Assembly (NCBI GenBank): GCA_001775055.1
Contig: MFBU01000009.1
Coordinates: forward strand, 382-64,381
Direction: 5' to 3'
Source: Candidatus Curtissbacteria bacterium RIFCSPLOWO2_02_41_11
GTDB taxonomy: Bacteria; Patescibacteriota; Microgenomatia; Curtissbacterales; GWA2-41-24
DNA length: 64,000 nt
The position numbers and the translations under genes were made by a program. Under the pieces are notes generated by a model. That model worked only from the letters and a program-made list of their open reading frames with translations. It was not told the DNA's origin and searched no databases. Of this stretch, positions 1 to 34,592 are shown one piece after another; positions within the stretch are counted from its first letter, which is position 1; each line of letters begins with the position of its first letter.

Positions 1-83
1 GAATCTTTCAGTCATATAGACTAAACTTACACAAGCTAACATTATTTTGCTTGACTTTGTGCCGACTTTTGCCTGACAAAAAG

Positions 84-112
84 CTGACAAAGTGCCTTTC
101 GCTTGTTATGAT
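84..112 (+). promoter_or_regulatory. candidate sigma70-like promoter (CTGACA, 17 nt, TATGAT) upstream of first CDS
   Basis: Seen directly: -35-like CTGACA at ~84-89 and -10-like TATGAT at ~107-112 with 17-nt spacing; the first ORF starts at 121 (GTG). Pattern match only. Confidence 0.3.
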
Positions 113-120
113 TAAAGATC

Positions 121-1437
121 GTGGACAGCCCGATTATCGAGGTTAAATATCCAATTAAGTTTAGAGAGGCAGATGCCAAAGTTTTGGGAGAGCACATACG
201 CTTGCGGCATAATGTTGATCTTGTTGGCGTTAAAAGGGTAGGTATCGGCGATTTTTTGAATTTCTTCCTTTATCATAAAGATATTGTTAAAAAATATATC
301 GAAAAGGACCAAAAGCATTTATTGATCCCGATTGATCTTAATGATTTGGTCGAAATCGAACTTTTTGCCTTCTGGATTTTAACCTTAAAACGAGTCGTTG
401 ATTTTCTTGAAAAAGTTGCTATTGATCAAAAAATCAAAAAACACGCCAACACGCTTTTTTTATCAGCGATTCAATCGCAAGATCTCTTTTTAACTATCGA
501 GAGCTTAAGAGAAGTTTTGAGTCAAATTGTTAAAATTGGGTTTTTCCCGACAATTTTCTTTCTTCGCTTTGACCGCATCAGCAATTTAGCAACGGCCGAT
601 TTTTTTGCAAACTTACAGGGACTGCGGGAGTCAACAGGCCAAAAGCTTTGTTTTATTTTTACCAGTTTTCGCTCAATTTCCCGGTTGTCACCGCAAGCTT
701 TCGAGGAAAAATTGCTGTCCCTTTTTTCGCATGTGATGTATCTTAAGCCGGCAAACGAAAAAGATTCCAAAATTATACTGCGCCAAATTAGCAAGAAATA
801 CCGAATCAGAACTAGCGGCAAGACAGCTCGAAGCTTAATTAAAATTTCCGGCGGCCATGCCCAATATCTTTATTTATCTTTGATAATTTTTAATCAACTT
901 AGCCGTGAAATGAAGGTTACTGTTGATAATATCTTGAGTTTGATTCTAGAGGATGAGCGTATTTCTTTGCAATCCGAGGAAATTTGGGAAAGTCTTACAG
1001 ATGTTGAGGAAAAAATAATTGCTGATGTTGCTGGCGGCAAGAAAATCACGTCTAATGATAGGAAAGAAGCCAAGTATCTTTGGGAAACGGGATTGGTTGT
1101 AGACCAAGGAGGACTTTCTGTTTTTAGTCCCTTGTTGGCATCTTATATGCGCGAAAATGGACGAGAGAAGCAAGAGGAGAGCGTGGAGTTGACCAGAAAG
1201 GAAAACCTTTTGTTTTCGCTACTTTTTGAAAATCTTGGCAATCTTTGTGAACGGGAGAAAATTGTCGAGGTGGTTTGGGGGGAATATGAGGATTTGGGTG
1301 TTTCCGATTGGACCATTGATAGATTAGTGGCTAGACTGCGCAATAAACTGAATGATCAGAAGAGCCAATTTGAATTGCTAACAGTCAAAACCCGAGGTTT
1401 TAAATTGGTGAAGGCAAAGTATCAGCAAGAAGGTTGA
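121..1437 (+). CDS. transcriptional regulator with C-terminal OmpR/PhoB-type winged-helix DNA-binding domain; ~350-aa N-terminal domain of unknown function
   Basis: C-terminus LCEREKIVEVVWGEYEDLGVSDWTIDRLVARLRNKL...FELLTVKTRGFKL matches the trans_reg_C wHTH consensus. N-terminal region has no receiver or Walker motifs I can recognise. Start codon uncertain (GTG at 121). Confidence 0.6.
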   Translation: MDSPIIEVKYPIKFREADAKVLGEHIRLRHNVDLVGVKRVGIGDFLNFFLYHKDIVKKYIEKDQKHLLIPIDLNDLVEIELFAFWILTLKRVVDFLEKVAIDQKIKKHANTLFLSAIQSQDLFLTIESLREVLSQIVKIGFFPTIFFLRFDRISNLATADFFANLQGLRESTGQKLCFIFTSFRSISRLSPQAFEEKLLSLFSHVMYLKPANEKDSKIILRQISKKYRIRTSGKTARSLIKISGGHAQYLYLSLIIFNQLSREMKVTVDNILSLILEDERISLQSEEIWESLTDVEEKIIADVAGGKKITSNDRKEAKYLWETGLVVDQGGLSVFSPLLASYMRENGREKQEESVELTRKENLLFSLLFENLGNLCEREKIVEVVWGEYEDLGVSDWTIDRLVARLRNKLNDQKSQFELLTVKTRGFKLVKAKYQQEG

Positions 1438-1454
1438 TCTGTTAAAATATCCTC

Positions 1455-2069
1455 ATGGTAAAGCAAGATCACAAAATCCAGATTATTGACCCCAAAACTA
1501 CTTATATTGATGAACAAGCTAAGGTCGGTGAAGGCACGACGATTTATCCCAACACGACCATTTTGGGAAAAACCACAATTGGCAAAAACTGTGAAATTGG
1601 GCCAAATTCAATTATTCAAGATAGCGTTATTGGTGATGATTGTGTCATTTTCTTTTCGGTAGTTAAAGGGTCCCAGATTGCGGATGATGTTGACATCGGC
1701 CCATTTTCGCATTTGCGCGGTGATGTCAAAATCGGTAAAGGTGTGCATATCGGTAATTATGTGGAAATGGTCAGGTCGACAGTCGGTTCTCAAAGTAAAA
1801 TCGGCCATCAAGCCTATTTGGGCGATACAACGGTGGGAGAACGCGTCAATATTGGCTCCGGTACTTTAACTGCCAATTTTGACGGAGTTAGCAAGCATCA
1901 AACAATTATTGAAGACGAGGTTTTTATCGGTGCTAATACGGTTTTGGTGGCACCGGTTAAAGTAGGCAAGGGTGCTAAAACCGGAGCAGGAGCAGTAGTT
2001 AAACAGGATGTACCAGAAAAAACTTTAGTTGCGGGAGTGCCGGCAGAGGTTAAGAAAAAGCTATCTTAA
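1455..2069 (+). CDS. hexapeptide-repeat (left-handed beta-helix) acyl/acetyltransferase, GlmU C-terminal-domain-like
   Basis: Repeated [LIV]GxxxxI hexapeptide motifs throughout (IGKNCEIGPNSIIQDSVIGDDCVI..., VDIGPFSHLRGDVKIGKGVHIGN...). Confidence 0.7.
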   Translation: MVKQDHKIQIIDPKTTYIDEQAKVGEGTTIYPNTTILGKTTIGKNCEIGPNSIIQDSVIGDDCVIFFSVVKGSQIADDVDIGPFSHLRGDVKIGKGVHIGNYVEMVRSTVGSQSKIGHQAYLGDTTVGERVNIGSGTLTANFDGVSKHQTIIEDEVFIGANTVLVAPVKVGKGAKTGAGAVVKQDVPEKTLVAGVPAEVKKKLS

Positions 2070-2076
2070 ATTACTC

Positions 2077-3312
2077 ATGAAGCTTTACGAATTTGAAGGG
2101 CATCGAATTTTGGCAAAAGCCGGGATCGAGAGTCCCTTTTTTATTGTTTGTTCAAGTATTGACGAGGTCAAGCAGGCCAGAAAAAGGCTTAAATTTCCGA
2201 TTGTTGCCAAGGTTCAAGTCCTCACCGGTCGTCGGGGCAAAGCAGGTGGAGTCAAATTTTTTACAAAAGAAAAACAGCTGTTAACATTTGCCAAAGAACA
2301 TTTCGGCCAGGATTTTATGGGCGAAAAGGTGCGTTTTGTTAGTCTTTCCCAAAAAGTTGAAATTAAAAAGGAATATTACATGTCTATTACTTACGATACC
2401 GTCAAAAAACTGCCATTTCTAATTTTTTCTTTTCAGGGCGGGATAGATATTGAAGAAATCAAAAAAAAAGATCCCAGCTTAATAAAAACTTTTGATATCG
2501 ATCCAATTTCCGGCCCAAAAGACAAGGATTTAGCCAAATTCTTTGAGCAGGATAAAACAGTTCTTGCAGATTTTGCCCTACGACTTTGGGATGCTTTTAG
2601 TCGCTATGACTTGCGCCTGATTGAGGTTAACCCGATTGGTTTAACAGCTGATGGTTACCTTATGGCAATCGATGCCAAAATAATTCTTGACGACGCGGGG
2701 CTTTTGCGCCATCGGGATTTGGACATTTTGCCAAAAGGAGCGATTTCGGCAATTCCCACGGATCGTGAGATACTGGCCAAAAAGATTGACGAGGATGACT
2801 ACCGCGGGTCGGCCGGCTCAACTTTTATCGAATTTGACGGGGATGTTGTTGTCTTGGCGTCTGGTGGAGGCGCCTCGCTTTTGGTGATGGATTCGGTGAT
2901 TGATGCTGGTGGACGGCCTGCCAATTACACCGAATACTCGGGTAATCCGCCGGCTGAAAAAGTTCAGAAGTTAACTAAGATTGCTTTGGATCGTGAGGGT
3001 TTATCTGGTTGTTTGGTAGCTGGGGCGGTAGCCAACTTTACTGATATTTATGAGACATTGAGAGGTTTTATTGAGGGATTGCGCCAAGTGCGTCCAAAGC
3101 CAACTTACCCGATTGTGATCAGGCGCGGAGGGCCAAGACAGGAAGAGGCTTATGAGATGATCAAAAAAGTTGCCAGGCGTGAGGGTTTTGATATTCATCT
3201 TTTTGGACCGGAAACGCCGATTTCGGTGGCTTGCCAAAAGATGGTGGAGTTAGCAAACGATTATAAAATTCGGAACCCGAAGCACGAAAGCCGAATCGAT
3301 TCGTATCATTAG
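2077..3312 (+). CDS. ATP-grasp subunit of an acyl-CoA synthetase (ADP-forming), SucC / citryl-CoA synthetase beta-like
   Basis: N-terminus MKLYEFEGHRILAKAGIESP...FPIVAKVQVLTGRRGKAGGVKFF resembles SucC/AclB ATP-grasp N-termini. Start moved to ATG 2077, directly after the upstream stop at 2067-2069; the track ORF from 2029 overlaps the previous gene. Confidence 0.8.
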   Translation: MKLYEFEGHRILAKAGIESPFFIVCSSIDEVKQARKRLKFPIVAKVQVLTGRRGKAGGVKFFTKEKQLLTFAKEHFGQDFMGEKVRFVSLSQKVEIKKEYYMSITYDTVKKLPFLIFSFQGGIDIEEIKKKDPSLIKTFDIDPISGPKDKDLAKFFEQDKTVLADFALRLWDAFSRYDLRLIEVNPIGLTADGYLMAIDAKIILDDAGLLRHRDLDILPKGAISAIPTDREILAKKIDEDDYRGSAGSTFIEFDGDVVVLASGGGASLLVMDSVIDAGGRPANYTEYSGNPPAEKVQKLTKIALDREGLSGCLVAGAVANFTDIYETLRGFIEGLRQVRPKPTYPIVIRRGGPRQEEAYEMIKKVARREGFDIHLFGPETPISVACQKMVELANDYKIRNPKHESRIDSYH

Positions 3313-3378
3313 TATCCATTAGTATATTGGTATCGATGCTAATATACGAATTCATACTAATTATACAAATATAAGTAT

Positions 3379-4272
3379 ATGGCTATTTTGGTTGATAGAG
3401 AAACTAGAGTTTTAATTCAGGGAATTACCGGCCGCTCCGGAGTTCAGGTTACTTCCGAGCTGTTGGATTACGGCACGAAAGTAGTCGCTGGGGTGACGCC
3501 TGGCAAGGGTGGGCAAGAGATAGATACGGTGCCGGTTTTTAATTCGGTTAGTGAGGCGATTAAAACTGTCGGTGAGGTTGATGTGGCGATGGTTTATGTA
3601 CCGCCTCTTTCGGCACACGCAGCGGCGATGGAGGCGATTGAGGCTAAAATTGCGCTGGTCCATATTTTTGTAGAAAAAATGCCGGTTTTCGATGTTTGTC
3701 AAGTTTTATCACTGGCTGTCAAAAATCAGGTTCGGGTTTTGGGGCCGGCCTCGGTTGGTGCAATTTCACCGGGAGAAGGTAAAATCGGCTCGATAGGCGG
3801 GCCGGCTCCAGATAACGTTTTTAGTAAAGGTCCTATTGGCGTTATTTCCAGATCTGGTGGTATGTGTTCAGAATTGGGACTTCTAATTACCAATTCTGGA
3901 TTTGGTCAGTCGACGGTGGTGGGTATTGGCGGCGATTTGATTGTTGGGACAACCTTTTCTGATTTATTGATCGAGTTCGAGCAAGATCGAGATACAAAAG
4001 CAGTTGTCGCTTTTGGGGAAGTCGGGGGCTCAAGCGAAATTGAAGTGGCAAGGTTAATCGAGGAAGGGAAATTTACTAAACCATTTATCATTTTTCTGGC
4101 TGGCAAATTTGCCGAAAAATTACCGCGCGATACCAGTCTTGGCCATGCCGGGGCAATCGTGGGGATGGAGTCAACAATGGCTCAAAAAATTAAGGCATTA
4201 AGAGATGCTGGTGCAATTGTTGCCGAGAATTTTGAGGAAATACCAGATTTAATTAAAAAGGCAGTCGGGTAG
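3379..4272 (+). CDS. CoA-binding subunit of an acyl-CoA synthetase, SucD / citryl-CoA synthetase alpha-like
   Basis: MAILVDRETRVLIQGITGRSGVQ...VVAGVTPGKGGQEIDTVPVFNSVSEA is a typical SucD N-terminus with CoA-binding Rossmann fold and GVTPGKGG motif. Confidence 0.85.
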   Translation: MAILVDRETRVLIQGITGRSGVQVTSELLDYGTKVVAGVTPGKGGQEIDTVPVFNSVSEAIKTVGEVDVAMVYVPPLSAHAAAMEAIEAKIALVHIFVEKMPVFDVCQVLSLAVKNQVRVLGPASVGAISPGEGKIGSIGGPAPDNVFSKGPIGVISRSGGMCSELGLLITNSGFGQSTVVGIGGDLIVGTTFSDLLIEFEQDRDTKAVVAFGEVGGSSEIEVARLIEEGKFTKPFIIFLAGKFAEKLPRDTSLGHAGAIVGMESTMAQKIKALRDAGAIVAENFEEIPDLIKKAVG

Positions 4273-4318
4273 GTAGGTTGGTAGGTAAGGAGGTAATTAG
4301 GTATACTTAAGTTGGAAT

Positions 4319-5056
4319 ATGTCTAAGCAATATAGAACTGCAATTACTACTCATATTGACGGTAAACCCCATGTTTACGGTTATGATTTAAACAAACTTG
4401 CCGGAAATAGCTCTTTTGCCCGTACTATCTACCTTATTTTGAAAGGGGAGATGCCGGACAAAAATTCCGAGAAGATGTTAGACGCGATGCTTTCAATTGC
4501 TATTGATCACGGAGTCGAGCCGGCGTCGGTGGTTGCTGCCCGCAATGTTTATTCGGGTGGCAGTCCTCTGCAGGCGGCGGTAGCAGCAGGGGTCTTGGCA
4601 TTTGGTGAATATCATGGTGGGGCGATCGAGATGGCTATGGAGAACTTTAAGAAGTATCAGCCTTTTGGAGTCAAAAAATTGGTTGAGGATTTTGCCAAAA
4701 CGGGCGTTCGAGTTTCTGGATTTGGTCACCGTCTTTATACTGTTGATCCCAGGACTCAAAGACTTTTAGAACTCGCCAAAGAGTTCGGTTTTTGGGGTAA
4801 ATATGTTAGGTTCGCAGTGGATTTGGAAAGTGAATTATCCAAAGGGGTAAAACTCTTACCTCTTAATATTGACGGCGTTTTTGCAGCACTACTTTTGGAG
4901 ATGGGTTTTAATCCCAAAGTCGGCAAAGGCGTTTTTATTATCGCCAGAACACCTGGTCTGGTGGCCCATGTAGTTGAGGAGGCATTAAGAGAGAAGCCGG
5001 TGAGAAGACTAAATGAAAAAGATATTGAGTATGATGGACCAAGACCGAGAAAATAA
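4319..5056 (+). CDS. citrate-synthase-fold protein, short form (citryl-CoA lyase-like)
   Basis: Citrate synthase signature region SGFGHRLYTVDPRTQRLLELAKEFG (compare GFGHRVYK.DPRA) and an upstream HGG...A-rich segment. At 245 aa it is far shorter than a full citrate synthase and resembles Ccl or the ACL C-terminal domain. Confidence 0.7.
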   Translation: MSKQYRTAITTHIDGKPHVYGYDLNKLAGNSSFARTIYLILKGEMPDKNSEKMLDAMLSIAIDHGVEPASVVAARNVYSGGSPLQAAVAAGVLAFGEYHGGAIEMAMENFKKYQPFGVKKLVEDFAKTGVRVSGFGHRLYTVDPRTQRLLELAKEFGFWGKYVRFAVDLESELSKGVKLLPLNIDGVFAALLLEMGFNPKVGKGVFIIARTPGLVAHVVEEALREKPVRRLNEKDIEYDGPRPRK

Positions 5057-5206
5057 AAATTCGAAATCCGAAGCACGAAATCCTAAACAAATTCAAATGA
5101 TCTAAATTCAAAAGTACAAATTAAATAGTATGAAATTTTGTATTTTGAGAATTTGGATTTTAAAAATTGTTTCGAGTTTCGAAATTAGAATTTCGGATTT
5201 ACAAAT

Positions 5207-5710
5207 ATGGTAATATTTGGAGTTGATCCCGGTACAGCTACTACTGGTTATGGGATTATAAAAAGTCAGAAATCAATGTCGAAGCCGGCAGCTGAACTGA
5301 TCGATTATGGGTGTATAGTTACCCCAAAGGAGAAGGAAATGCCTCTGAGGCTATATATTATCCAAAAAGCGCTTAAAAGTCTTTTGAGACAATATAAACC
5401 TGATTGTGTTATTGTCGAACAATTGTTCTTCGGAATTAATTCCAAAACAGCAATGACAGTAGGGCAGGCTAAAGGGGTAGTTCTTTCGACTGCCGCAGGC
5501 TATAGGCTACCAGTGATTGAATATCAGGGACTTCATGTAAAACATACTTTAACCGGCAGTGGACGGGCTGACAAAAAACAAGTCCAAAAATCGGTGATGA
5601 AGTTTTTGGGGAAGCGAAAATTGAAAAAGCCTGCCAATGGATATTTAGATGATGCTGCCGATGCGCTGGCGGTGGCGATCTGTCATGCGATTAAGGTCGC
5701 TAAAGGCTAA
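5207..5710 (+). CDS. ruvC: crossover junction endodeoxyribonuclease RuvC
   Basis: MVIFGVDPGTATTGYGII...CVIVEQLFFGINSKTAMTVGQAKGV...LDDAADALAVAICHA matches the RuvC catalytic motifs. Confidence 0.9.
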   Translation: MVIFGVDPGTATTGYGIIKSQKSMSKPAAELIDYGCIVTPKEKEMPLRLYIIQKALKSLLRQYKPDCVIVEQLFFGINSKTAMTVGQAKGVVLSTAAGYRLPVIEYQGLHVKHTLTGSGRADKKQVQKSVMKFLGKRKLKKPANGYLDDAADALAVAICHAIKVAKG

Positions 5711-5789
5711 AAGACTAACGACTAACGCCTTAAAATCCAAGCATTAGTCGTTTAGCATTAGACATTAGTCGATAGGAGGAAGTGGGGAA

Positions 5790-6614
5790 GTGACTAACTT
5801 TGAGAATCTTCGCAAAACTTTCAAAAAAATAACTTCATACGAGATTACCAAAAGACAGAAGTTAATACTGATGTCCTTTTTTCTGACGGTTATTTTGTTG
5901 GCAACGCAAACAGTGGGCGAGGATATTAGATATCAGGTAATGGGCTTCATGGCGATTGCCACGGTTTTTTTGGCCGTTTTTTCTCTTTGGGGAGAACTTT
6001 CCGGTATCAAGTACTTTTTACTTTTGCTTTTACCGATCTATTTTGTGGCTGGAGCCTCCTTATTTTACTTTTTGCTGCCGGTTAGGTGGTTGACCAGGGT
6101 GCCATATGCATTTTTATTTGGGATTTCGGTCTATCTTTTGATGCTTACTTCCAATATTTATAATGTGGCGGCAATTAGAACTATTGCTTTGCTTCGCGCA
6201 GCGCATGCTGTTGGCCTTTTGTTTTCGCTGATTGCCACTTTTTTTCTTGCCAATGTTTTATTTTCTTTTCACTTGCCGTTTTATTTGCTAGTTGCTGGGA
6301 CAATTGCTATTGTCTTTCCGCTTTATCTGGTTGGATTATGGTCATATGAACTTGAGGAATTTATCTCCAAAAAAGTTTTTATTTACGCTGTTATTTTTAC
6401 CTTTGTTTCGGCGCAAGTTATACTTACTCTTTCTTTTTGGCCGATTGCGCCGATAAACGGGGCACTCGCTTTGGCAACTATTATGTATGTCTTGCTGGGG
6501 CTTTCCAGGTTGGATTTTGAGGAGAAATTAAAAAAAAGAGTAGTCTGGGAGCATGTGGCGGTTGCTTTGGTGGTTTTTGTGATTATTCTGATGACTACCA
6601 GATGGGGAGGGTGA
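5790..6614 (+). CDS. polytopic integral membrane protein, function unknown
   Basis: At least 7 hydrophobic helices. GTG start at 5790 with AGGAGGA Shine-Dalgarno (SD) 8 nt upstream. Confidence 0.6.
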   Translation: MTNFENLRKTFKKITSYEITKRQKLILMSFFLTVILLATQTVGEDIRYQVMGFMAIATVFLAVFSLWGELSGIKYFLLLLLPIYFVAGASLFYFLLPVRWLTRVPYAFLFGISVYLLMLTSNIYNVAAIRTIALLRAAHAVGLLFSLIATFFLANVLFSFHLPFYLLVAGTIAIVFPLYLVGLWSYELEEFISKKVFIYAVIFTFVSAQVILTLSFWPIAPINGALALATIMYVLLGLSRLDFEEKLKKRVVWEHVAVALVVFVIILMTTRWGG

Positions 6615-11159: not shown

Positions 11160-12095
11160 ATGGCTTTTGATCTGCCCTCTTTGATTGATGAGTTTTTAGA
11201 GTATTTAGAGATTGAGCGCAATCTCTCCCCTCTTACCATTCGCGATTACCGGCATTACTTAAATCATTTTGCTGATTGGTCAAAAAACCATTCTCCGATT
11301 TTGCGACCTCAGGATATAACAGTCGAGTTAATCCGCAAATATCGAGTGTATTTAGCCCATTACAACAGCCCGAACGGCCAATTACCTCTTAAAAAAGTCA
11401 CCCAGAATTATTATGTTATTGCCTTGCGGTCGTTTCTTAAATATTTAATAAGAAAAGATTTACCGGTGATATCGCCTGATAAAATTGAGCTTCCCAAAAC
11501 CGAAAGCCGTTCTTTGAAGTTTTTGGATCGGGATCAAGTTGATCGACTCTTGGTTCAACCGAATGTATCAAGCGAGCGAGGGATTCGTGATAAGGTTATC
11601 ATGGAGATGCTTTTTTCAACGGGACTTAGGGTTTCGGAATTGTGTCGGCTGAATCGGGACCAAGTTAATCTAGAGCGAGGTGAATTTGGAGTTGTCGGCA
11701 AAGGTCAACGCTTGCGGGTGGTTTTTCTTTCTGATAGGGCTAAAATTTGGCTGGAGAAGTATTTGGCAAGAAGAACGGATAGTTTTAAGCCGCTTTTTAT
11801 TCGGTATGCCGGTAATCAGGAACCTGTGGTTAATGGGGAGAAGATGAGATTGACTCCCCGATCTGTTCAGCGAATCATTGACAAATATGTGCGAAAAGCC
11901 CGTTTGCCGGTGAAGGCCACGCCCCATGTTCTTCGTCATTCATTTGCAACCGATCTTTTAATGAATGGAGCGGATTTAAGATCAGTGCAAGAGCTTTTGG
12001 GTCACAAGAATGTTTCTACCACCCAAATTTACACCCATGTAACAAATCAACAGTTGAGAGACGTACACAAGGCCTTTCATTCAGGGAATAAATAG
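11160..12095 (+). CDS. tyrosine site-specific recombinase XerC/XerD family
   Basis: N-terminal core-binding domain (FLEYLEIERNLSPLTIRDYRHYL) and C-terminal catalytic motifs (RHSFATDLLMNGADLRSVQELLGHKNVSTTQIYTHV). Confidence 0.88.
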   Translation: MAFDLPSLIDEFLEYLEIERNLSPLTIRDYRHYLNHFADWSKNHSPILRPQDITVELIRKYRVYLAHYNSPNGQLPLKKVTQNYYVIALRSFLKYLIRKDLPVISPDKIELPKTESRSLKFLDRDQVDRLLVQPNVSSERGIRDKVIMEMLFSTGLRVSELCRLNRDQVNLERGEFGVVGKGQRLRVVFLSDRAKIWLEKYLARRTDSFKPLFIRYAGNQEPVVNGEKMRLTPRSVQRIIDKYVRKARLPVKATPHVLRHSFATDLLMNGADLRSVQELLGHKNVSTTQIYTHVTNQQLRDVHKAFHSGNK

Positions 12096-23399: not shown

Positions 23400-25151
23400 A
23401 TGGCTGATTCTGCCCAAGGCGCAAACATTAAGAGAGATATTCAGACTAAAGCAAAACCTTCATTTATCGAAGATGTTTTAGAATTCCGTGGTTTACTGAC
23501 TGCCCAGCAACTTAGCTTTGTTAAGAACGAGGCTAAAAGAAGACAGGAATCTGTTGAGAAAATTTTAACGCAGATGGGTTGGGTAACTGATGAACAGTTA
23601 GCCGCAGCCAAGAGTGACGTACTTGGTGTGCCTTATGTTGATCTTTCGCAGCAGCCAATTTCTCCTGAAGTTCTAGCTTATCTACCTGAAGAGGTGGCCA
23701 GAAGATTTATAGTTATTCCGATTGCCAGGGAAGGCGAAACGTTATCAGTAGCCATGTCAGACCCCCTAGACTTGCAAGTCTTAGAGTTTATCGAGAAAAA
23801 ATCTGGTCTGGCTGTTCGGCCGTATATGGCTACTGTTGGTTCAATTCAAAGGGCGATAGCAGAACAATACAGCCGCGGTCTTTCTTTTGAAGTCGGTGAA
23901 GCTTTAAAAGAAGCGGCGCCGGGACTGACTACGCCTTTGGCAATTCAAACCGGAGTTTCCGGAATTTTGGGTGAAGCTCCGGTTGCCAGGATTGTTTCGA
24001 CACTTCTTGAGTATGGTATTAAAGTCAGAGCCTCTGATATCCACATCGAGCCACTCGAGAATGAAACTAGGATTCGTTATCGAATCGACGGAATTTTGCA
24101 TGAAAAGCTGATTTTACCAAGACGCATTCATGATGCGATAGTTTCCAGAATTAAAATTTTGGGTAATATGAAGATTGACGAAAAACGCTTACCCCAAGAC
24201 GCCCGTTTTAACTTTAAAGTCGGCCAAGAAGAGTTAGATTTGAGGCTTTCAACAATGCCTACCGCCTATGGAGAGAAAGTGGTAATGAGGCTTCTTAAGA
24301 AAACCGGTGGCGTGCCGACACTGCCGGAATTGGGGCTTCGCGGCAGCGCGCTTAAACATTTAGATGAAAATATTGCCAGACCACACGGAATTATTCTGAT
24401 TTGTGGTCCAACCGGTTCGGGAAAAACGACTAGCTTGTATTCGATTCTTTCAAAGTTAAATTCGACAAAAGTTAATATCATGACCTTGGAGGATCCGATT
24501 GAATATCAAATACCGGGGGTTAATCAGGTTCAGGTAAATACTCAGGCGGGATTAAACTTTGCTTCTGGACTGCGCTCATTTTTACGGCAAGACCCTAATA
24601 TTATTATGGTTGGAGAGGTTCGCGATTCTGAAACTACTGATTTGGCTATTCAGGCTGCTCTAACCGGTCATTTAGTTTTTTCGACTCTGCACACTAACGA
24701 TGCCGCCGGAGCTCTTCCCCGACTGTTGGATATGCAGGCAGAACCTTATTTAATTGCTTCAACGGTTACCTGTGTTGCCGGCCAGCGGGTTGTGCGTAGA
24801 GTTTGTGCGGCTTGTAAAATTGCTAAAGCTCCGTCTGAGGAAATATTTATAGAAATTAAAAAAACTTTAGGTGATCTTTATAAATTTGAAAAAAGTAACC
24901 CCCCAACTTTTTTTGTGGGTAAAGGATGCAGGGAGTGTAATAATACCGGCTATTTAGATCGAATTGGTATATTTGAGGTATTGGTTGTTTCAGAAAAAAT
25001 TGCCAGGATGATTCTTACTCGTGAACCGGTCCAAGCAATTGCCAATCAAGCGATCAGCGAAGGCATGATTACGATGAAACAAGACGGTTTTTTGAAAGTG
25101 ATTGAGGGTATAACGACTGTTGAGGAAGTCTTGAGAGTAGCGGAAGAATAA
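23400..25151 (+). CDS. pilB: type IV pilus assembly ATPase PilB (GspE family)
   Basis: Walker A GPTGSGKTTSLYS, Asp and His boxes, tetracysteine CxxC...CxxC. Confidence 0.92.
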   Translation: MADSAQGANIKRDIQTKAKPSFIEDVLEFRGLLTAQQLSFVKNEAKRRQESVEKILTQMGWVTDEQLAAAKSDVLGVPYVDLSQQPISPEVLAYLPEEVARRFIVIPIAREGETLSVAMSDPLDLQVLEFIEKKSGLAVRPYMATVGSIQRAIAEQYSRGLSFEVGEALKEAAPGLTTPLAIQTGVSGILGEAPVARIVSTLLEYGIKVRASDIHIEPLENETRIRYRIDGILHEKLILPRRIHDAIVSRIKILGNMKIDEKRLPQDARFNFKVGQEELDLRLSTMPTAYGEKVVMRLLKKTGGVPTLPELGLRGSALKHLDENIARPHGIILICGPTGSGKTTSLYSILSKLNSTKVNIMTLEDPIEYQIPGVNQVQVNTQAGLNFASGLRSFLRQDPNIIMVGEVRDSETTDLAIQAALTGHLVFSTLHTNDAAGALPRLLDMQAEPYLIASTVTCVAGQRVVRRVCAACKIAKAPSEEIFIEIKKTLGDLYKFEKSNPPTFFVGKGCRECNNTGYLDRIGIFEVLVVSEKIARMILTREPVQAIANQAISEGMITMKQDGFLKVIEGITTVEEVLRVAEE

Positions 25152-25247
25152 GGGTATCACGGGCGCCAAGGGTATCACGAGTACCACAGGCTTAAAACAA
25201 AAAGCTCTTGATACTTTTGGTACATTTGATACCTTTGGTACTCTTAA
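25152..25247. repeat. copy A of a ~95-nt dyad-symmetric intercistronic repeat family (GGGTATCACGAG...AGCTCTTGATAC...GGTAC arms)
   Basis: Shares >60% identity and the same arm order with the copies at 37605, 40886 and 50511. Confidence 0.7.
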
Positions 25248-25254
25248 CATAAAC

Positions 25255-26319
25255 ATGTCTATCCAAGAGTATTTAGAAATTGTTGTTAAAAAGGAAGCTT
25301 CAGACCTTCATTTGGTTACCGGAATGCCGCCAATGGTGCGTATTGACGGGCAACTATTACCTGTTACCGGTTCTTTCTTGACACCAGAGGATACGGAAAG
25401 CCTGGTTTTTGAGCTTCTCTCCCCTGAGCAAAAGGAGATGCTTTTGGTTAACAGGGAGCTCGACTTTTCTTTTGCTCTTGGTGAAGTGGCTCGCTTTCGC
25501 GTCAATGCCTACTTTCAGAAAGGTTATCTGGCGGCAGCTTTAAGGCTGATTCCTTCATACATTAAGACGATTGAAGAACTAAACCTGCCCAAAATTTTGC
25601 ATAATTTTGCTAGACTTCGTCAAGGATTTATTTTGATTACAGGACCGACCGGTCACGGCAAGTCAACGACTTTGGCTTCGGTAATTAATGAAATTAACCA
25701 GACACGCGCGGTACACATAGTGACGATTGAAGATCCGATTGAGTATGTTTACCCTAAAGGCAAATCCCTAATTTCCCAAAGAGAGATGCATCTGGATACT
25801 CATTCATGGGAAATATCTTTGCGATCGGCTCTTCGAGAGGATCCTGATGTGGTTTTGGTTGGCGAGATGCGCGATTATGAAACAATCGCCTCGGCAATTA
25901 CCATCGCCGAGACTGGTCATTTGGTTTTTGCCACTCTGCACACCAATTCGGCTGCCCAGTCGGTCGACCGAATAATTGACGTTTTCCCCCAAAATCAACA
26001 GGCCCAAGTCCGGTTGCAACTTGCCGAGACAATTGCAGCTATTGTTTCGATGAGGTTGGTTCCAGCAATAGGTGGTGGAAGATTGCCAGCCGTAGAAATT
26101 CTTTTGACCAGTGGTGCAGTGCAGACGGTAATTAGAGAGGCCAAGAGTCACATGATTGACAATATTATTCAAACTTCGGGTGAAGCAGGCATGATTCTAC
26201 TTGATGCCTCTTTGGCCTATTTGGTTCGTTCTGGCAGGGTATCTCTGGATGTTGCCAAAAGTTACTGCATTAGGCCGGAGGAATTGGATCGCTTAGTGGG
26301 AAACAACACTAGTTCCTAG
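25255..26319 (+). CDS. pilT: type IV pilus retraction ATPase PilT
   Basis: ITGPTGHGKSTTLAS Walker A, AIRNLIRE-like segment VIREAKSHMIDNIIQTS. Confidence 0.92.
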   Translation: MSIQEYLEIVVKKEASDLHLVTGMPPMVRIDGQLLPVTGSFLTPEDTESLVFELLSPEQKEMLLVNRELDFSFALGEVARFRVNAYFQKGYLAAALRLIPSYIKTIEELNLPKILHNFARLRQGFILITGPTGHGKSTTLASVINEINQTRAVHIVTIEDPIEYVYPKGKSLISQREMHLDTHSWEISLRSALREDPDVVLVGEMRDYETIASAITIAETGHLVFATLHTNSAAQSVDRIIDVFPQNQQAQVRLQLAETIAAIVSMRLVPAIGGGRLPAVEILLTSGAVQTVIREAKSHMIDNIIQTSGEAGMILLDASLAYLVRSGRVSLDVAKSYCIRPEELDRLVGNNTSS

Positions 26320-26343
26320 CGACTAGTGACTAGCGTCTAGATT

Positions 26344-27558
26344 ATGTCACTTTACCGTTATACAGCCAAGGATTTAAGCGGCAAAAAGTTTACCGGCGAA
26401 GTCGAAGCAATTGACGAGAAAGCCTTGGTAACCACTCTTCAAGGCGAAGGGCTGGTGCCGATTGAGGTTAGAGAACGCAATGCCCAAGGTTCTATAACTA
26501 TTGAGAAAGTCTTGCCTAAGACTGGCGGAGTTTCTTCCTCTGAAATTGTGGGTTTTACCAGACAGCTTTCGACAATGATTTCAGCAGGTCTTCCTTTAAC
26601 CGATGCCTTGGTAATTTTGGAAAAACAGGCTAAAAATAAGCATTTTGCGCGGGTACTTGCAGAAGTTGTGGCTGATGTCGAAGGCGGTACGTCGCTTTCG
26701 GCGGCTTTTGCCAAACATCCCAGAGTTTTTGACATTATCTATGTGAAACTGGTTGAGGCCGGTGAAACCGGCGGAGTTTTGGATAAGATTTTAAATAAAC
26801 TGGCCGAGTCTTTAGAGAAAGAAAGGGAATTTAAGGCGAAAACCCGGGGCGCTTTTATTTATCCGGCAATTGTGGTTGTGGTTATGATTATCGTAATGAG
26901 TATTATGATGATTTTTGTAATCCCCAAACTGACCAGTCTTTACACTGAAATCGGAGCAGCCCTGCCGCTTCCAACGAGAATTTTAATTGTCATGTCTAAT
27001 TTCATGAGGTCGTTCTGGTGGCTTTTAATAATGATGGTAATAGCCGGTACTTATAGCTTTAGGACATATTCCAAAACAGTCAGGGGCGGCCAGATTGTCT
27101 CAAAATTTGTTTTATGGTTGCCCATTTGGGGAAAAATCCGCAAAACCTTAATTTTAGCTCAATTCACGCGCACGCTTGGACTTTTAATCGGTAGTGGAAT
27201 CCCAATTATTACTGCCCTAAAAGTGGTGGCCGATCTTTTGGCCGCTCCTACTTATAAGGAAGGTATTGAATTTGCAATTTCCCGGGTGGAGCGTGGTGCG
27301 CCGCTTTATCAACCGCTGGCTGCCAGTCCCGATTTTCCGCCGATTATCGGGCAAATGATCAGAGTTGGTGAGGAAACAGGTAAGATGGACGAGGTCTTGA
27401 TTAGACTTTCTGTTTACTTTGAAGCGGAAAGCGAGAATTTGATTCGAAATTTAACAACGGCACTCGAGCCGGTAATTTTAGTGATTTTGGGTGCGGGCGT
27501 TGGTGTTTTAGTGCTTTCTATTATCCTGCCGATCTACAATTTGACAGCGCAATTCTAA
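26344..27558 (+). CDS. pilC: type IV pilus platform protein PilC (GspF family)
   Basis: Two GspF repeats and three transmembrane segments. Confidence 0.9.
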   Translation: MSLYRYTAKDLSGKKFTGEVEAIDEKALVTTLQGEGLVPIEVRERNAQGSITIEKVLPKTGGVSSSEIVGFTRQLSTMISAGLPLTDALVILEKQAKNKHFARVLAEVVADVEGGTSLSAAFAKHPRVFDIIYVKLVEAGETGGVLDKILNKLAESLEKEREFKAKTRGAFIYPAIVVVVMIIVMSIMMIFVIPKLTSLYTEIGAALPLPTRILIVMSNFMRSFWWLLIMMVIAGTYSFRTYSKTVRGGQIVSKFVLWLPIWGKIRKTLILAQFTRTLGLLIGSGIPIITALKVVADLLAAPTYKEGIEFAISRVERGAPLYQPLAASPDFPPIIGQMIRVGEETGKMDEVLIRLSVYFEAESENLIRNLTTALEPVILVILGAGVGVLVLSIILPIYNLTAQF

Positions 27559-27580
27559 CTGGAAACTAGAAACTATAAAC

Positions 27581-27946
27581 TTGGAACCAGACACAGTAAA
27601 TTTTAGATTCTTAAATTTTAAGGTCTACAAAGACGCAAAAAAATTTTATCATGAGATTGTTAGGATAACTGCTAACTTTCCTAGGCAATATTGGGAGTTG
27701 GGAGACCAGATGAGAAGAAGCGCTCTTTCTGTAATTCTTAATCTAGCAGAGGGTTCAGCCAAGAAGTCAGACAGAGATTTTAACCGTTACATTAAAAATA
27801 GTTTAGGGTCAATAAATGAGTGCGCAGCGGGTATTGACGTGGCTTTTGGCGAAAAACTTGTAAATGAGGAGGTTTTTAAAAATCTAATGATTAAAGCGTC
27901 AGAAATCGCAAATCAATTAGGCGGGTTCTCAAAATCTTTGAGGTAA
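27581..27946 (+). CDS. four-helix-bundle protein (23S rRNA IVS protein / Avd-like family)
   Basis: FRFLNFKVYKDAKKFYHEIVRITANFP...RRSALSVILNLAEGSAK...SLGSINEC fits the TIGR02436/Avd pattern. TTG start. Confidence 0.75.
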   Translation: MEPDTVNFRFLNFKVYKDAKKFYHEIVRITANFPRQYWELGDQMRRSALSVILNLAEGSAKKSDRDFNRYIKNSLGSINECAAGIDVAFGEKLVNEEVFKNLMIKASEIANQLGGFSKSLR

Positions 27947-28124
27947 CTCGAAACATTAAACCTTAAACTTGAAACCATAAACTGAACAGAGACTAAGTGG
28001 TGGTAGCTTGTGAAGTATTTCATGTTTCCAGTTTATTGTTTCCTGTTTCACGTTAGGTATCTTGACAACAGTTAACTTATCCCCAATACTTAAATAGAAG
28101 AGGAAATTTGAAAAGTTTATCCTC

Positions 28125-28136
28125 AGGAGGAGGTGA
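28125..28136 (+). promoter_or_regulatory. strong Shine-Dalgarno AGGAGGAGGTGA for the major pilin gene
   Basis: 10 nt upstream of ATG 28147. Confidence 0.5.
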
Positions 28137-28146
28137 ATAAATTTTT

Positions 28147-28623
28147 ATGGTTATTCCTGCCCGAAAGAAATTATTCAGGGGCTTCACATTAATTGAGCTT
28201 TTAATCGTCATTGCTATTCTGGGAATTTTGGCAGCCGCTGTTTTGGTTGCAGTCAATCCGAAAAAGAGACAAGATCAGGCTAAAGATGCAAATATTAAAG
28301 CTGATGTTGGATCAATTGCAACAGGACTTCAGGCATACTTTACTTCACCTGGTCAAGGATCTTACCCGCTTACTTTGCTAAAACTCGAAGAAAATAAAGA
28401 TTTGGTGAAGGTTCCAACACCTCCTGCTGGAGCCGGTGCCGAGTACGTATATGCAGTAAACCCATCAGCGACTTGTGATGGTACGGCAACAGCTCAATGT
28501 ATATCTGCAAGCGTTTCTGCGCCATTATTTGATAAGACTGCAACAGATGAGGTATGGTGTTGGCAATCATCAACCGGTAAGGGTCAGCCTGTGACTGCCG
28601 CTGTAGGTTGTCCGGCAAACTGA
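28147..28623 (+). CDS. type IV pilin (prepilin with class III signal)
   Basis: Leader MVIPARKKLFRG|FTLIELLIVIAILGILAA, with Glu at +5 and a C-terminal Cys pair. Confidence 0.9.
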   Translation: MVIPARKKLFRGFTLIELLIVIAILGILAAAVLVAVNPKKRQDQAKDANIKADVGSIATGLQAYFTSPGQGSYPLTLLKLEENKDLVKVPTPPAGAGAEYVYAVNPSATCDGTATAQCISASVSAPLFDKTATDEVWCWQSSTGKGQPVTAAVGCPAN

Positions 28624-28659
28624 TAATTTAACAATAAGTCTTTTAAGAGTTAAGTTATT

Positions 28660-29115
28660 ATGTGTCGGCAACATGGATTTACATTAATCGAGCTTTTGAT
28701 TGTTGTTGCAATCTTGGGAATATTAGCCTTGGTGGCGTTCATGGCAATTAATCCGGCAAAACGCCAAAATCAGGCCAAAGATGCTAGGACTAAAGCTGAT
28801 ATTGACCAAATAGCCACTGGGCTCGGAGTCTACTTTACCACGCATCAACCACAAACCTACCCCGTGGATCTTTCAGAGGTTGTCAATAACAAAGATCTTA
28901 AATCTTTACCTACCCCTCCTAATAGTGGTACATACGGGAGTGGATACGCGGCAGTTGCCGAGGATGGAGGGACGTGTGACGGAGGTACGATTGTTTGTAG
29001 CCGGGCAAAGCTTTCATGGACCCTTAATGACCCTCAAAATGGTAATAGCGTATGGTGTTGGCAATCATCAACCGGCAAAGCACAACCTCTTACTCCCGTT
29101 TTGTGCACCCCTTAG
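28660..29115 (+). CDS. type IV pilin paralog
   Basis: MCRQHG|FTLIELLIVVAILGILA; C-terminal WCWQSSTGK segment shared with the preceding pilin. Confidence 0.9.
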   Translation: MCRQHGFTLIELLIVVAILGILALVAFMAINPAKRQNQAKDARTKADIDQIATGLGVYFTTHQPQTYPVDLSEVVNNKDLKSLPTPPNSGTYGSGYAAVAEDGGTCDGGTIVCSRAKLSWTLNDPQNGNSVWCWQSSTGKAQPLTPVLCTP

Positions 29116-29152
29116 TTGCGCCAGTTTTTAAATTTGGCTATTCTTAGATTTA

Positions 29153-29920
29153 GTGGTTTTATTTCTTATTCTCTTTTTTATTCTAGGAACCGCCGTTGGC
29201 AGTTTTTTGAATGTGGTTATTGACAGGACTACTCAAGGCCAGTCGATACTCGGCAGGTCTTATTGCGATTACTGCCGCGCGACGCTTGGGGTAGTCGATC
29301 TTATTCCCATTTTAAGTTTTACGGCGCTTTCTGGCCGATGCCGGCATTGTCGAAAAAAACTTTCATGGCAATATCCAATTGTAGAGACGGTGACAGGCTT
29401 ACTTTTTGTTCTCTCATTTCTTATATTGACAGTAAGTGGCCAGCTTACGATTACTACTCTACTCTACTATTTTTTTCTCATATCAATTTTAATCGTGGTG
29501 GCGGTTGTTGATTTTAAATTCTCGCTAGTACCGACAACTTTGGTTTTTTTGGCATCACTGCTCGCGCTTTTTTATAATTATTTTTTTCTAACATCAGGTC
29601 AATTTGTCCAAAGTGTAGCGGCAGCATTTGGCACAGCTGTTTTTTTTCTGGTGATTGTTATTTTAACTCGCGGCCGGGGCATGGGCGAAGGCGATGTGGT
29701 GCTTGGTTTTTTGATCGGCATGGTTTTGGGCCTAAAAGAGTCGGTGCTGGCCATATTTCTGGCGTTTTTAATAGGAGCAATTATTTCACTTTTTCTTATA
29801 ACACTTGGCAAAAAGCACTTTGGTCAGACTGTTCCCTTTGCCCCGTTTTTGTCTTTGGGATTTTTGATTAGTCTTTTTTGGGCAAAGGAGATTATTAACT
29901 GGTATTTAATGCTATATTGA
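29153..29920 (+). CDS. pilD: prepilin peptidase (A24 family) PilD
   Basis: GSFLNVVIDR...CDYC...CRHC zinc-binding N-terminus and a polytopic membrane domain. GTG start. Confidence 0.88.
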   Translation: MVLFLILFFILGTAVGSFLNVVIDRTTQGQSILGRSYCDYCRATLGVVDLIPILSFTALSGRCRHCRKKLSWQYPIVETVTGLLFVLSFLILTVSGQLTITTLLYYFFLISILIVVAVVDFKFSLVPTTLVFLASLLALFYNYFFLTSGQFVQSVAAAFGTAVFFLVIVILTRGRGMGEGDVVLGFLIGMVLGLKESVLAIFLAFLIGAIISLFLITLGKKHFGQTVPFAPFLSLGFLISLFWAKEIINWYLMLY

Positions 29921-29924
29921 TGTT

Positions 29925-30539
29925 ATGAGGAAGGGTTTTGGTCTGATCGAATTTATGATCGTGATTACGGTTTTTGGAATCGCGACTGCCGTTATCACCG
30001 CCTCATTTTTAACATTTGAGCGCAATCAACGCCTAAAAAGCGCCGCCAGTATGTTAAAAAATGACATCAGGCTAATTCAAAACAAGGCACTCGGTGGGGA
30101 TAAAAGTACACCTAACTGTTCCAAAGTAACCGATCCTGCTCCGGTTTTGGTTGGTTGGTACCTGAACGTGGTTAAAGGTTCGAGTGAGTATACGTTAAAT
30201 AGCGATTGTAGAAATAAAGATAGTATTGAAGACCCTGATATTCTAATTAAAATTGTTTCATTGCCACGGGGGGTTAAAATTAGCGATGTACAATACGGGA
30301 ACAGTTCTCCTGTTTCAAAGGATGCCATCAACGTTTTATTCCAACCTTTAACACATAACACATCATTCCATGATGCTTTGCTGGCAATTACTCCCCCTTT
30401 TCTTGATAATTCGGGAAATCTAAAAGATCTATTGGGTTCATTACCTCAGGAAATGCTTAGTATTATTTTAGCCGGAGACCAAGGTGGAACTTATAAAGTT
30501 ATTGTCCAGCCTTCAGGAGAAGTTAATGAGCAAAAATAA
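29925..30539 (+). CDS. pseudopilin/minor pilin with prepilin-type N-terminus
   Basis: MRKG|FGLIEFMIVITVFGIA. Confidence 0.75.
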   Translation: MRKGFGLIEFMIVITVFGIATAVITASFLTFERNQRLKSAASMLKNDIRLIQNKALGGDKSTPNCSKVTDPAPVLVGWYLNVVKGSSEYTLNSDCRNKDSIEDPDILIKIVSLPRGVKISDVQYGNSSPVSKDAINVLFQPLTHNTSFHDALLAITPPFLDNSGNLKDLLGSLPQEMLSIILAGDQGGTYKVIVQPSGEVNEQK

Positions 30540-31017
30540 GCCAGATACCAGATACCAGATACCAGATACCAAATTTCTCGGTCAATCTCTCATCGAGGTT
30601 GTCATCGCCATGGCTGTTATTGTCGGTTTGGCTGTGGCTTTGGTGACTACGACTTTGGTTGTCCAGAAAGCATCAAGGACGGCCAAAAATAATACTCAGG
30701 CTACGAAGTTAGTCCAGCAAAATATCGAGCAGGTAAGAGTTTATAGGGACCGCAAAGGCTATGCTTCTATCCCCGATGGAGGTAGCTGTTATACACTATC
30801 CTCAGGTGATCCAGATCCCCTTAGCTGGTTCTTTTCTGCTTCTTTTGACTGTTCTGGAAGTGGGCAGCAAATTACTTTGGGTAAGACCAATTTCGACAGA
30901 AAAATAAAGATTGAAACTGATGCTAGTACAAAAAAGGTTACTGTTACCGTTTCTTGGACAGATTCTGGCGGAACCCAGTCGGTTAGTAATCAAACCATTC
31001 TATCTTCAGGCCTCTAG
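30526..31017 (+). CDS. minor pilin-like protein; leader region contains 4x heptamer CAGATAC
   Basis: ...KFLG|QSLIEVVIAMAVIVGL prepilin-like. ATG 30526 preferred over the track start 30484. Heptamer tract at 30541-30568. Confidence 0.65.
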   Translation: MSKNKPDTRYQIPDTKFLGQSLIEVVIAMAVIVGLAVALVTTTLVVQKASRTAKNNTQATKLVQQNIEQVRVYRDRKGYASIPDGGSCYTLSSGDPDPLSWFFSASFDCSGSGQQITLGKTNFDRKIKIETDASTKKVTVTVSWTDSGGTQSVSNQTILSSGL

Positions 31018-31061
31018 GTTTTTTTGCCTCTCGAATCCTCATTTGTGGTAAATTGTAATTA

Positions 31062-31739: not shown

Positions 31740-31832
31740 AGTTACAACTGACATTTGACCCACCTTCGCTAAAGCTACGGTGGGCAAGCAATTGACAACA
31801 GAGGGCTATTCTACCTAAACTGGAGTTAGGAG

Positions 31833-32618: not shown

Positions 32619-32647
32619 CAACTGACAACTGACATTTGACAAAAAAT

Positions 32648-32902
32648 ATGAATAAACGGACAAAATTGATACTTTCCATAATTGGCGCCAGCGCTATTAT
32701 AATTCCGGTGATTTTACTTTTAGTGTTAACTAAAAATCCCGGTCAAGATCTTCAACTTTCCTCCGACAAAAGATCGATTGATACAAAAACCATCGAGGAG
32801 TCCGTTAAGAATGTTCCAAAGCAACAACAAATTTTTCCCACGCCTAGTCCAGCAACTCCTTCGGCAAGTCCAGCCTCCGAAGGAAGCCCTTCTGCTAACT
32901 AA
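32648..32902 (+). CDS. small membrane protein with Pro/Ser/Ala-rich tail
   Basis: ATG 32648 preferred over TTG 32636. Confidence 0.45.
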   Translation: MNKRTKLILSIIGASAIIIPVILLLVLTKNPGQDLQLSSDKRSIDTKTIEESVKNVPKQQQIFPTPSPATPSASPASEGSPSAN

Positions 32903-32976
32903 ATATTATGTCTGCCCGCACATTTGGTCTTGATATAAATTTCAGGTATGTTTTTTAGATTGTTTTAAAAGTATTT

Positions 32977-33999: not shown

Positions 34000-34050
34000 G
34001 TTTGGACAAATAGAATGAGTTTTTGTTACTCTTAAAAGAGAGAGTCTAGT

Positions 34051-34590: not shown

Positions 34591-34592
34591 AA

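Follow-up and report, generated by a model that had tools for sequence, protein, structure and literature searches.

A predicted three-gene citryl-CoA synthetase/lyase operon in Candidatus Curtissbacteria and its possible link to amino-sugar acetylation

Three consecutive, co-directional genes at positions 2077-5056 of a 64,000-nucleotide stretch of contig MFBU01000009.1 (hereafter the window), from the tiny-genome groundwater organism Candidatus Curtissbacteria bacterium RIFCSPLOWO2_02_41_11, raise the question of whether they encode a succinyl-CoA synthetase (SCS) next to a citrate-synthase-like protein or a system that cleaves citrate, and, in the latter case, of what such a system would be for in a bacterium that belongs to the candidate phyla radiation (CPR). 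In an earlier note the genes were described as encoding a SucC-like ATP-grasp subunit, a SucD-like CoA-binding subunit and a 245-aa protein of the citrate-synthase fold, and the cluster was likened to the pair that citryl-CoA synthetase (CCS) forms with citryl-CoA lyase (CCL) rather than to a plain SCS. The open reading frames (ORFs) lie exactly at the positions given there, Pfam bears out the description of all three products, and the likeness to CCS/CCL has held: both synthetase subunits fall short of the SucC and SucD cut-offs, the site motifs are of the ATP-citrate lyase (ACL) type, the small subunit carries insertions of CcsB and ACL, and the trees place both subunits outside SCS. We refer to the genes as ccsA (large subunit), ccsB (small subunit) and ccl (lyase). 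Judging from sequence comparison, it is very likely that their products act as CCS and CCL on citrate and citryl-CoA. The explanation that we favour overall, with rather more confidence than doubt, is that of a stand-alone, unfused ACL that makes acetyl-CoA from scavenged citrate, with the acetylation of glucosamine-1-phosphate as a principal consumer.

The product of ccl matches the C-terminal part only of the Pfam Citrate_synt profile, and the GFGHR..DPR signature attributed to it is present as SGFGHRLYTVDPR. It passes the NCBIfam model NF004869 'citryl-CoA lyase' with 283.8 bits (cut-off 212), while every citrate and methylcitrate synthase model is far under its threshold; the model of 2-methylcitrate/citrate synthase II gives 95.8 bits against a cut-off of 421, which disposes of the possibility, raised in the earlier note, that the protein belongs to another family such as fragments of 2-methylcitrate synthase. 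Its best solved relative is the CCL of Hydrogenobacter thermophilus (6hxp, 231 bits), the second being a citrate synthase (82 bits), and its residues 2-244 align with residues 2-250 of 6hxp at 48.6% identity over 243 residues, compared with 26.6% to the lyase module of an ACL. Both the model and this end-to-end alignment agree with the proposed architecture of a short, Ccl-type protein. The motifs HGGA, GFGHR, DPR, NIDG and ARTPG, all found in the query and in the H. thermophilus CCL, recur in nearly all of the 57 operon-encoded homologues that were aligned, and the predicted catalytic His/His/Asp/Arg set is intact. These motifs hold the equivalents of H274, H320, D375, R329 and R401 of citrate synthase. 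In the neighbour-joining tree of the lyases the query is set clearly apart from the citrate synthases by distance, the tree being otherwise without resolution.

Among the homologues there is a subgroup of shorter lyases (219-232 aa), mostly from Woese- and Daviesbacteria-type loci (L036, L038, L040, L041, L043, L047, L052, L053, L057, L059, L060, L062, L067, L071, L078, L079 and L082), which are without the C-terminal EKPxRRL tail and have AHxxN or GQxLN in place of AHVxEE. The catalytic His/His/Asp residues are retained in this subgroup.

The large subunit contains an ATP-grasp_2 domain (PF08442, 6.7e-42) followed by Citrate_bind (PF16114, 'ATP citrate lyase citrate-binding', 5.8e-28), the latter standing in place of the Ligase_CoA domain of SCS-beta, and with a score of 206 it fails the SucC equivalog model (cut-off 370). 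Its matches among solved structures are led by a CCS chain (6hxq_B, 196 bits), ahead of Thermus SCS-beta (158) and Chlorobium ACL-beta (142). The motifs of its acid-binding C-terminal domain are GGGAS, YSGNPP, AVANFTDI and RRGGP; the counterparts are GGGAS, YSGDP, AIANFTDV and RRGGP in Chlorobium ACL-beta, GGGGS, IGGNPP, TANNTRI and RRNGP in H. thermophilus CcsA, and NGAGL, GGGA, NIFGGITRC and RLxGT in SCS-beta. In human ACLY, the counterpart of the N-F-T in ANFTD is N346-F347-T348; N346 and T348, together with R379, were reportedly found by Sun and colleagues in 2010 to bind citrate. F347 of ACLY has been described as a key residue of the citryl-CoA/oxaloacetate site (PMC10115795).

The small subunit consists of a CoA_binding and a Ligase_CoA domain, and its score with the SucD equivalog model (278) is also below the cut-off (336). 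It keeps the phosphohistidine motif SLGHAGA and the motif GEVGGS; thus the active-site residues singled out for checking, the His of the alpha-type subunit (GHAGA) and the catalytic residues of Ccl, are present in the two products. Its identity to solved SCS-alpha chains is 43-47%. Two of its insertions, IGGPAP (pattern IGG-xx-P) and KFAEKLP (pattern KFAExLP, just before GHAGA), are shared with a CcsB of the Aquificae type and with a fused ACL of Nitrospinota, and both are missing in four solved SCS-alpha chains. In an assembly of the same population (locus L005, 9061-9954), ccsB is broken by a frameshift into ORFs of 58 and 227 aa, owing to a mistake in the assembly or to a pseudogene variant.

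The phylogenetic grouping was examined with neighbour-joining trees with bootstrap, built with few reference sequences that were rebuilt from printed PDB alignments. In the tree of the large subunits, SCS-beta forms a clade with 100% bootstrap that excludes the query, and a split with 92% separates SCS and other non-citrate groups from ACL-beta, CcsA and the operon-encoded proteins, among which the large subunits of the operons form a lineage of their own within a superclade of ACL, CcsA and CPR/DPANN sequences. In the tree of the small subunits, the four solved SCS-alpha chains form a 99% clade excluding all the small subunits of the operons, the rest of the tree having no resolution. Neither subunit groups within SCS in these trees; it was grouping inside SCS, together with placement of the lyase in another family, that the earlier note had named as refuting its proposal. 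The folds themselves can be regarded as settled by the identity of the lyase to a solved CCL and by full-length matches to solved CCS, ACL and SCS chains, and fold comparison is incapable of telling CCS from SCS.

To see how far the cluster extends beyond this genome, one genome per species of GTDB was scanned, which gave 474 stretches with a relative, and the best 80 of these 474 were used as loci. They are headed by Curtissbacteria (58-69% identity), followed at 41-47% by Woyke-, Davies- and Woesebacteria and other Microgenomates, Magasanik-, Staskawicz- and Jorgensenbacteria and Parcubacteria; the DPANN archaea among them are Iainarchaeum, Nanoarchaeia, Micrarchaeota, Woesearchaeota and Nanobdellati, and there is also one contig of Heimdallarchaeota. 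All the 75 loci with enough downstream DNA have ccsA, ccsB and ccl in this order on one strand, the other five of the 80 being cut by contig ends; therefore, the cluster is not a chance juxtaposition. In addition, about 60 clusters among the best 150 matches in a library of 50%-identity representatives carry the ANFT/RRxGP signature. A lyase identical to the query is found on Rifle aquifer scaffolds, and its close homologues are named Candidatus Curtissbacteria. Complete or nearly complete genomes with the operon include CP066686.1, OY970314.1, OZ246414.1 and JAKAJD010000001.1. The earlier note had regarded such a module as unexpected in this genome; instead, it occurs widely across CPR and DPANN, and in several metagenome-assembled genomes (MAGs) of Curtissbacteria the lyase already bears the name 'citryl-CoA lyase' at NCBI. 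The large subunit is labelled as hypothetical, 'ATP-grasp domain-containing' or 'succinyl-CoA synthetase beta', some homologues being called 'citrate synthase', and for distant relatives cluster look-ups returned hardly any names, the exceptions being an 'ATP citrate lyase citrate-binding domain-containing protein' of Diapherotrites and a fused ACL of Nitrospinota.

The titles 'uncultured Gammaproteobacteria bacterium' and 'uncultured Methanosarcinales archaeon' borne by many contigs look like placeholders and are unfit for claims on distribution; the contigs concerned (L007, L010, L011, L015, L022, L025, L034, L037 and others) have synteny of the CPR or DPANN type and cluster with named CPR/DPANN sequences. 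One archaeal large subunit (L035, Nanoarchaeia) groups at 100% bootstrap with those of L032-L034, i.e. two Woykebacteria-type contigs and L034, titled 'uncultured Gammaproteobacteria', and L035 also has the hexapeptide acetyltransferase gene found upstream in these loci; an Iainarchaeum locus (L031) was noted alongside this comparison. This grouping suggests that the entire cassette was exchanged across domains by ultra-small bacteria and archaea, unless it stems from mis-binning. Furthermore, about 28 loci have unrelated genes of the same direction interposed among ccsA, ccsB and ccl (examples in Table 1). They were considered as extra subunits and rejected, as their functions are unrelated (Trp-repressor-like, HAD hydrolase, thioredoxin and DsbD, DUF2268, PHO4 phosphate transporter, Fic). 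The operon tolerates insertions while its order is kept.

Table 1. Genes of the citrate-cleavage locus (positions in the window), and examples of insertions in related loci (positions in the locus named)
Feature	Position	Strand	Remarks
ccsA-like, large (beta-type) subunit of putative citryl-CoA synthetase	2077..3312	+	411 aa from ATG; N-terminal ATP-grasp and C-terminal ACL-type citrate-binding domain
ccsB-like, small (alpha-type) subunit	3379..4272	+	297 aa; CoA-binding domain and phosphohistidine domain (SLGHAGA)
ccl, putative citryl-CoA lyase, truncated citrate-synthase fold	4319..5056	+	245 aa
Stand-alone GlmU acetyltransferase half (glucosamine-1-phosphate N-acetyltransferase)	1455..2069	+	directly upstream of ccsA
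Insertions between operon genes, examples	L006 8484-8921; L056 8114-9443; L083 8076-10502; L084 8201-9499; L077 2469-4866

In the window, 7 nt lie between the stop codon of the glmU-type gene and the ATG of ccsA, for which an alternative TTG start at 2029 would give a longer ORF overlapping the preceding gene. The spacers between ccsA and ccsB and between ccsB and ccl are 66 and 46 nt, respectively. The alpha-type subunit and the lyase are thus separate ORFs, with a stop codon and the latter spacer between them, and not the polypeptide of about 600 aa of the fused ACL architecture; ccsB and ccl are also separate genes in related loci. The GC content of the three genes is 0.44-0.47 against 0.41 in the window, a difference that is unremarkable, and recent horizontal transfer into this genome was accordingly rejected. 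A scan of positions 1-6000 for promoters and terminators gave counts no higher than in shuffled sequence, and is uninformative on the limits of the operon.

A 31-nt direct repeat is located at the 3' end of ccsA (3265-3295, AAAATTCGGAACCCGAAGCACGAAAGCCGAA) and right after the stop codon of ccl (5056-5086, AAAATTCGAAATCCGAAGCACGAAATCCTAA); the two copies are 87% identical, and each holds a short TTCG..CGAA hairpin. Outside these two copies, its 16-nt core is absent from the 64 kb (0.07 occurrences expected by chance). A copy is also found 3' of ccl in another Curtissbacterium (L017), and in locus L003 an earlier stop codon results from two single-nucleotide polymorphisms in the copy of ccsA. 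The repeat could be a transcript-end or stability element.

What the module might serve is suggested by its neighbours. The product of the gene upstream of ccsA matches the glmU model TIGR01173 with 233 bits over profile positions 249-438 of 452, and is 42% identical to residues ~248-450 of E. coli GlmU, with R333, E349, H363, Y366, N377, N386 and K392 invariant. The GlmU family is also the commonest neighbour across the 80 loci (29 loci, in 26 of them upstream and co-directional), and 38 of the 72 loci that extend 1.5 kb or more upstream have a gene for an acetyl-CoA-dependent acetyltransferase within 1.2 kb upstream, 22 of the GlmU type and 16 of the GNAT type, although these counts are inflated by the phylogenetic non-independence of the loci. 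The GNAT genes are divergent in 15 Curtissbacteria-type loci and co-directional in L069. Three GlmU lineages lie beside the operon, namely the bacterial C-terminal half, an archaeal-type bifunctional enzyme or its C-terminal half alone, and alt_bact_glmU. In a Parcubacteria locus (L073) the order is glmS-glmU-ccsA-ccsB-ccl-glmU N-half, and in a Woesebacteria locus (L041) the operon is preceded by a murC/murB fusion and followed by an archaeal-type GlmU. Full Pfam annotation of the 64-kb window revealed no gene of the tricarboxylic acid (TCA) cycle or its reductive form, and none for pyruvate:ferredoxin oxidoreductase, Pta/Ack or a citrate transporter; nor were genes of either form of the cycle found among the recurrent neighbours in the 80 loci.

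The rest of the window encodes housekeeping genes, RuvC, CarAB, GyrAB, a type IV pilus cluster, aminoacyl-tRNA synthetases, a class A penicillin-binding protein, MurT/GatD and peptidoglycan genes. The pilus cluster (23400-35375) is complete, with PilB- and PilT-like ATPases, PilC, several prepilins, a prepilin peptidase, a PilX-like protein and PilMNO, and matches what is typical for episymbionts of the CPR. Two genes upstream of ccsA, at 121-1437, a 438-aa protein is encoded that has a C-terminal winged-helix DNA-binding domain of the OmpR/PhoB type and no recognisable receiver domain; a family of ~447 aa occupies the same position in eight other Curtissbacteria loci, and the protein may be a local regulator. 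A weak ORF resembling an IS200/Y1-type transposase was found at 43567-44214, and a tyrosine recombinase of the XerC/D type at 11160-12095. Since a recombinase with the same Pfam domains lies at the same relative position in a distant Curtissbacteria locus (L001), the latter seems to belong to the chromosome and not to a mobile element.

In the working mechanism, the His of GHAGA would be phosphorylated by CcsA and CcsB at the expense of ATP, citrate held in the C-terminal domain of CcsA would receive the phosphate, and attack of CoA on the phosphorylated citrate would yield citryl-CoA, which Ccl would split by retro-Claisen cleavage into acetyl-CoA and oxaloacetate. The module would stand outside the reductive TCA cycle, both in this Curtissbacterium and in many other members of CPR and DPANN, and convert scavenged citrate to acetyl-CoA, a major sink of which would be the acetylation of glucosamine-1-phosphate by the adjoining GlmU-type enzyme, leading to UDP-N-acetylglucosamine (UDP-GlcNAc) for the cell envelope. 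The GlmU half next to ccsA probably uses the acetyl-CoA that the module would make. That acetyl-CoA supply to amino-sugar acetylation is its main role we propose tentatively, at slightly less than even confidence. While the substrates are inferred from the proteins, the direction, the citrate source and the coupling to GlmU are read from the gene neighbourhood and from the precedent of Gracilibacteria described below.

A number of points weigh against this explanation. The small subunit is 47% identical to an SCS-alpha (Aeropyrum pernix, 2yv2) and 39% to CcsB of the Aquificae type, and the large subunit, with 34% identity to H. thermophilus CcsA, is barely closer to it than to Thermus SucC (32%); since overall identities barely favour CCS for the one subunit and disfavour it for the other, the assignment rests on the C-terminal domain, the motifs, the insertions and deletions, and the obligatory partnership with ccl. 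The order among the operon clade, Aquificae CcsA and ACL-beta has bootstrap values of only 56-64% in a neighbour-joining tree with few references. About half of the loci are without an acetyltransferase neighbour, and gene neighbourhood is only circumstantial evidence. Moreover, other sources of acetyl-CoA, a citrate transporter and TCA enzymes may be encoded beyond the 64-kb window, and the reaction is reversible.

This reversibility leads to the alternative to which we give the most weight, albeit as an unlikely one, in which the module runs backwards and conserves ATP as a citrate synthase (acetyl-CoA + oxaloacetate + ADP + Pi -> citrate + CoA + ATP), thereby earning a fermenter one substrate-level phosphorylation for each acetyl-CoA. 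CPR organisms depend on such phosphorylation, and the ACL of Desulfobacter postgatei is a precedent, having reportedly been found (by Moeller, Schauder, Fuchs and Thauer in 1987) to operate in the citrate-forming, ATP-yielding direction. However, the reverse mode needs a stoichiometric supply of oxaloacetate and a sink or export route for citrate, and genes for aconitase, isocitrate dehydrogenase or a transporter are not linked to the operon in the window or among the recurrent neighbours in the 80 loci; besides, linkage to consumers of acetyl-CoA fits its production better than its disposal. Marginally less probable still is that the pair acts on a related acid, e.g. malate, citramalate, methylcitrate or itaconate, and the matching acyl-CoA. 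The distinctness of the clade from both characterised groups, Aquificae CCS and ACL, would accord with this, and the lyases lacking the EKPxRRL tail suggest some functional drift, but the query keeps all the citrate-site motifs of the ACL type together with the full catalytic set, and its lyase is close to a CCL that has been characterised both biochemically and structurally and exceeds the curated threshold for citryl-CoA lyases.

The two remaining alternatives we consider very improbable, and equally so. An ordinary SucCD beside a fragment of citrate or 2-methylcitrate synthase is what several databases imply when they name homologues 'succinyl-CoA synthetase beta subunit' or 'citrate synthase', and it would account for the closeness of the small subunit to A. 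pernix SCS-alpha; it is at odds with the failure of both subunits at the equivalog cut-offs, with the replacement of the SCS-beta motifs by those of the ACL type and of Ligase_CoA by Citrate_bind in the large subunit, with the alignment of the 245-aa protein to CCL from end to end, which is not that of a broken citrate synthase, and with the position of both subunits outside SCS in the trees. The other is that the genes provide the citrate-cleaving step of a reductive TCA cycle in an autotrophic organism, against which we count that CPR/DPANN genomes of ~1 Mb are not known to have this cycle. CCS/CCL do serve in this way in Hydrogenobacter, Aquifex and Leptospirillum (PMC2607301), but the Leptospirillum genes adjoin acnA, frdAB and sucCD (PMC2607301), whereas no gene of the reductive cycle is linked to the operon here or in the 80 loci, and the DPANN MAGs with ccs/ccl have been reported to contain incomplete cycles (PMC8091004).

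CPR and DPANN make up a large share of microbial diversity, and few of the metabolites that they take from their hosts are known; the GlmU-linked operon offers a testable hand-off, with citrate going in and acetyl groups of the cell wall coming out. The proposed role would parallel that of the cytosolic ACLY of eukaryotes and not the autotrophic role known in bacteria. The assignment would also correct the database labels 'succinyl-CoA synthetase', 'citrate synthase' and 'hypothetical protein', and add a third lineage to the CCS/ACL family, with a bearing on the origin of ACL by gene fusion. A broader proposal, which we put forward as a speculation with the balance clearly against it, is that CPR and DPANN share a mobile three-gene unfused ACL as a dedicated, perhaps the only, source of acetyl-CoA, wired directly to UDP-GlcNAc synthesis, so that envelope building in these episymbionts would depend on citrate from the host or the surroundings. 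Since the large subunit has site motifs of the ACL type while the lyase is a free CCL, the clade might, in this proposal, also be a pre-fusion stage between CCS/CCL and ACL, and it might work as a non-covalent ACL-like complex.

CCS/CCL itself is a known system, and the operon is partly annotated already. In a 2022 preprint, CPR/DPANN sequences annotated as SCS or citrate synthase were found to fall within CCS and CCL (10.1101/2022.10.25.513756), and a study of DPANN noted ccs/ccl in a few MAGs (PMC8091004). The searchable literature returned nothing relevant on Curtissbacteria or Microgenomates with citrate, citryl-CoA, succinyl-CoA synthetase or acetyl-CoA, and no paper mentioning GlmU together with citryl-CoA; the strict three-gene operon across CPR/DPANN, the combination of ACL-like motifs with a free CCL and the recurrent linkage to GlmU or GNAT genes appear to be unreported there. 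The nearest precedent is a Gracilibacterium, also a CPR bacterium without a TCA cycle, in which a two-subunit ACL, with genes of archaeal affinities, has been predicted to yield acetyl-CoA and oxaloacetate from citrate taken from outside (Sieber et al. 2019, PMC6851277). That ACL was described as 'rarely detected in CPR', whereas the three-gene CCS/CCL described here is widespread in Microgenomates, other CPR and DPANN, and shows a recurrent linkage to GlmU that was not reported in the former case.

Among the characterised systems, SucCD has the same two-subunit architecture of ATP-grasp, CoA-binding and phosphohistidine domains, but here the acid-binding motifs in the C-terminal domain of the beta-type subunit are replaced and linkage to a lyase gene is obligatory. 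The CcsAB and Ccl of H. thermophilus (Aoshima et al. 2004; 6hxq, 6hxp) likewise are three separate polypeptides, whose domains are those found here, the lyase being similar over its full length, 6hxq_B being the best solved match of the large subunit, and the two insertions of the small subunit being shared with a CcsB of the Aquificae type. The module described here differs in that its large subunit, about one third identical (34%, as above), has the ACL-like ANFTD and RRGGP in place of ANNTR and RRNGP; its small subunit, with 297 aa against 329-353 aa, is without a C-terminal extension; and all three genes lie in one operon without the context of the reductive TCA cycle, in a mesophilic ultra-small CPR bacterium. 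The AclBA of Chlorobium (6hxj) and the fused ACLs catalyse the same overall chemistry as is predicted for the module, and the four site motifs of Chlorobium ACL-beta agree nearly letter for letter with those found here (GGGAS, YSG[ND]P, A[VI]ANFTD[IV] and RRGGP), while the small subunit shares with ACL the insertions before GHAGA; in ACL, however, the alpha part is fused to the lyase module, whereas here the two are encoded by separate genes and the lyase is far nearer to free CCL.

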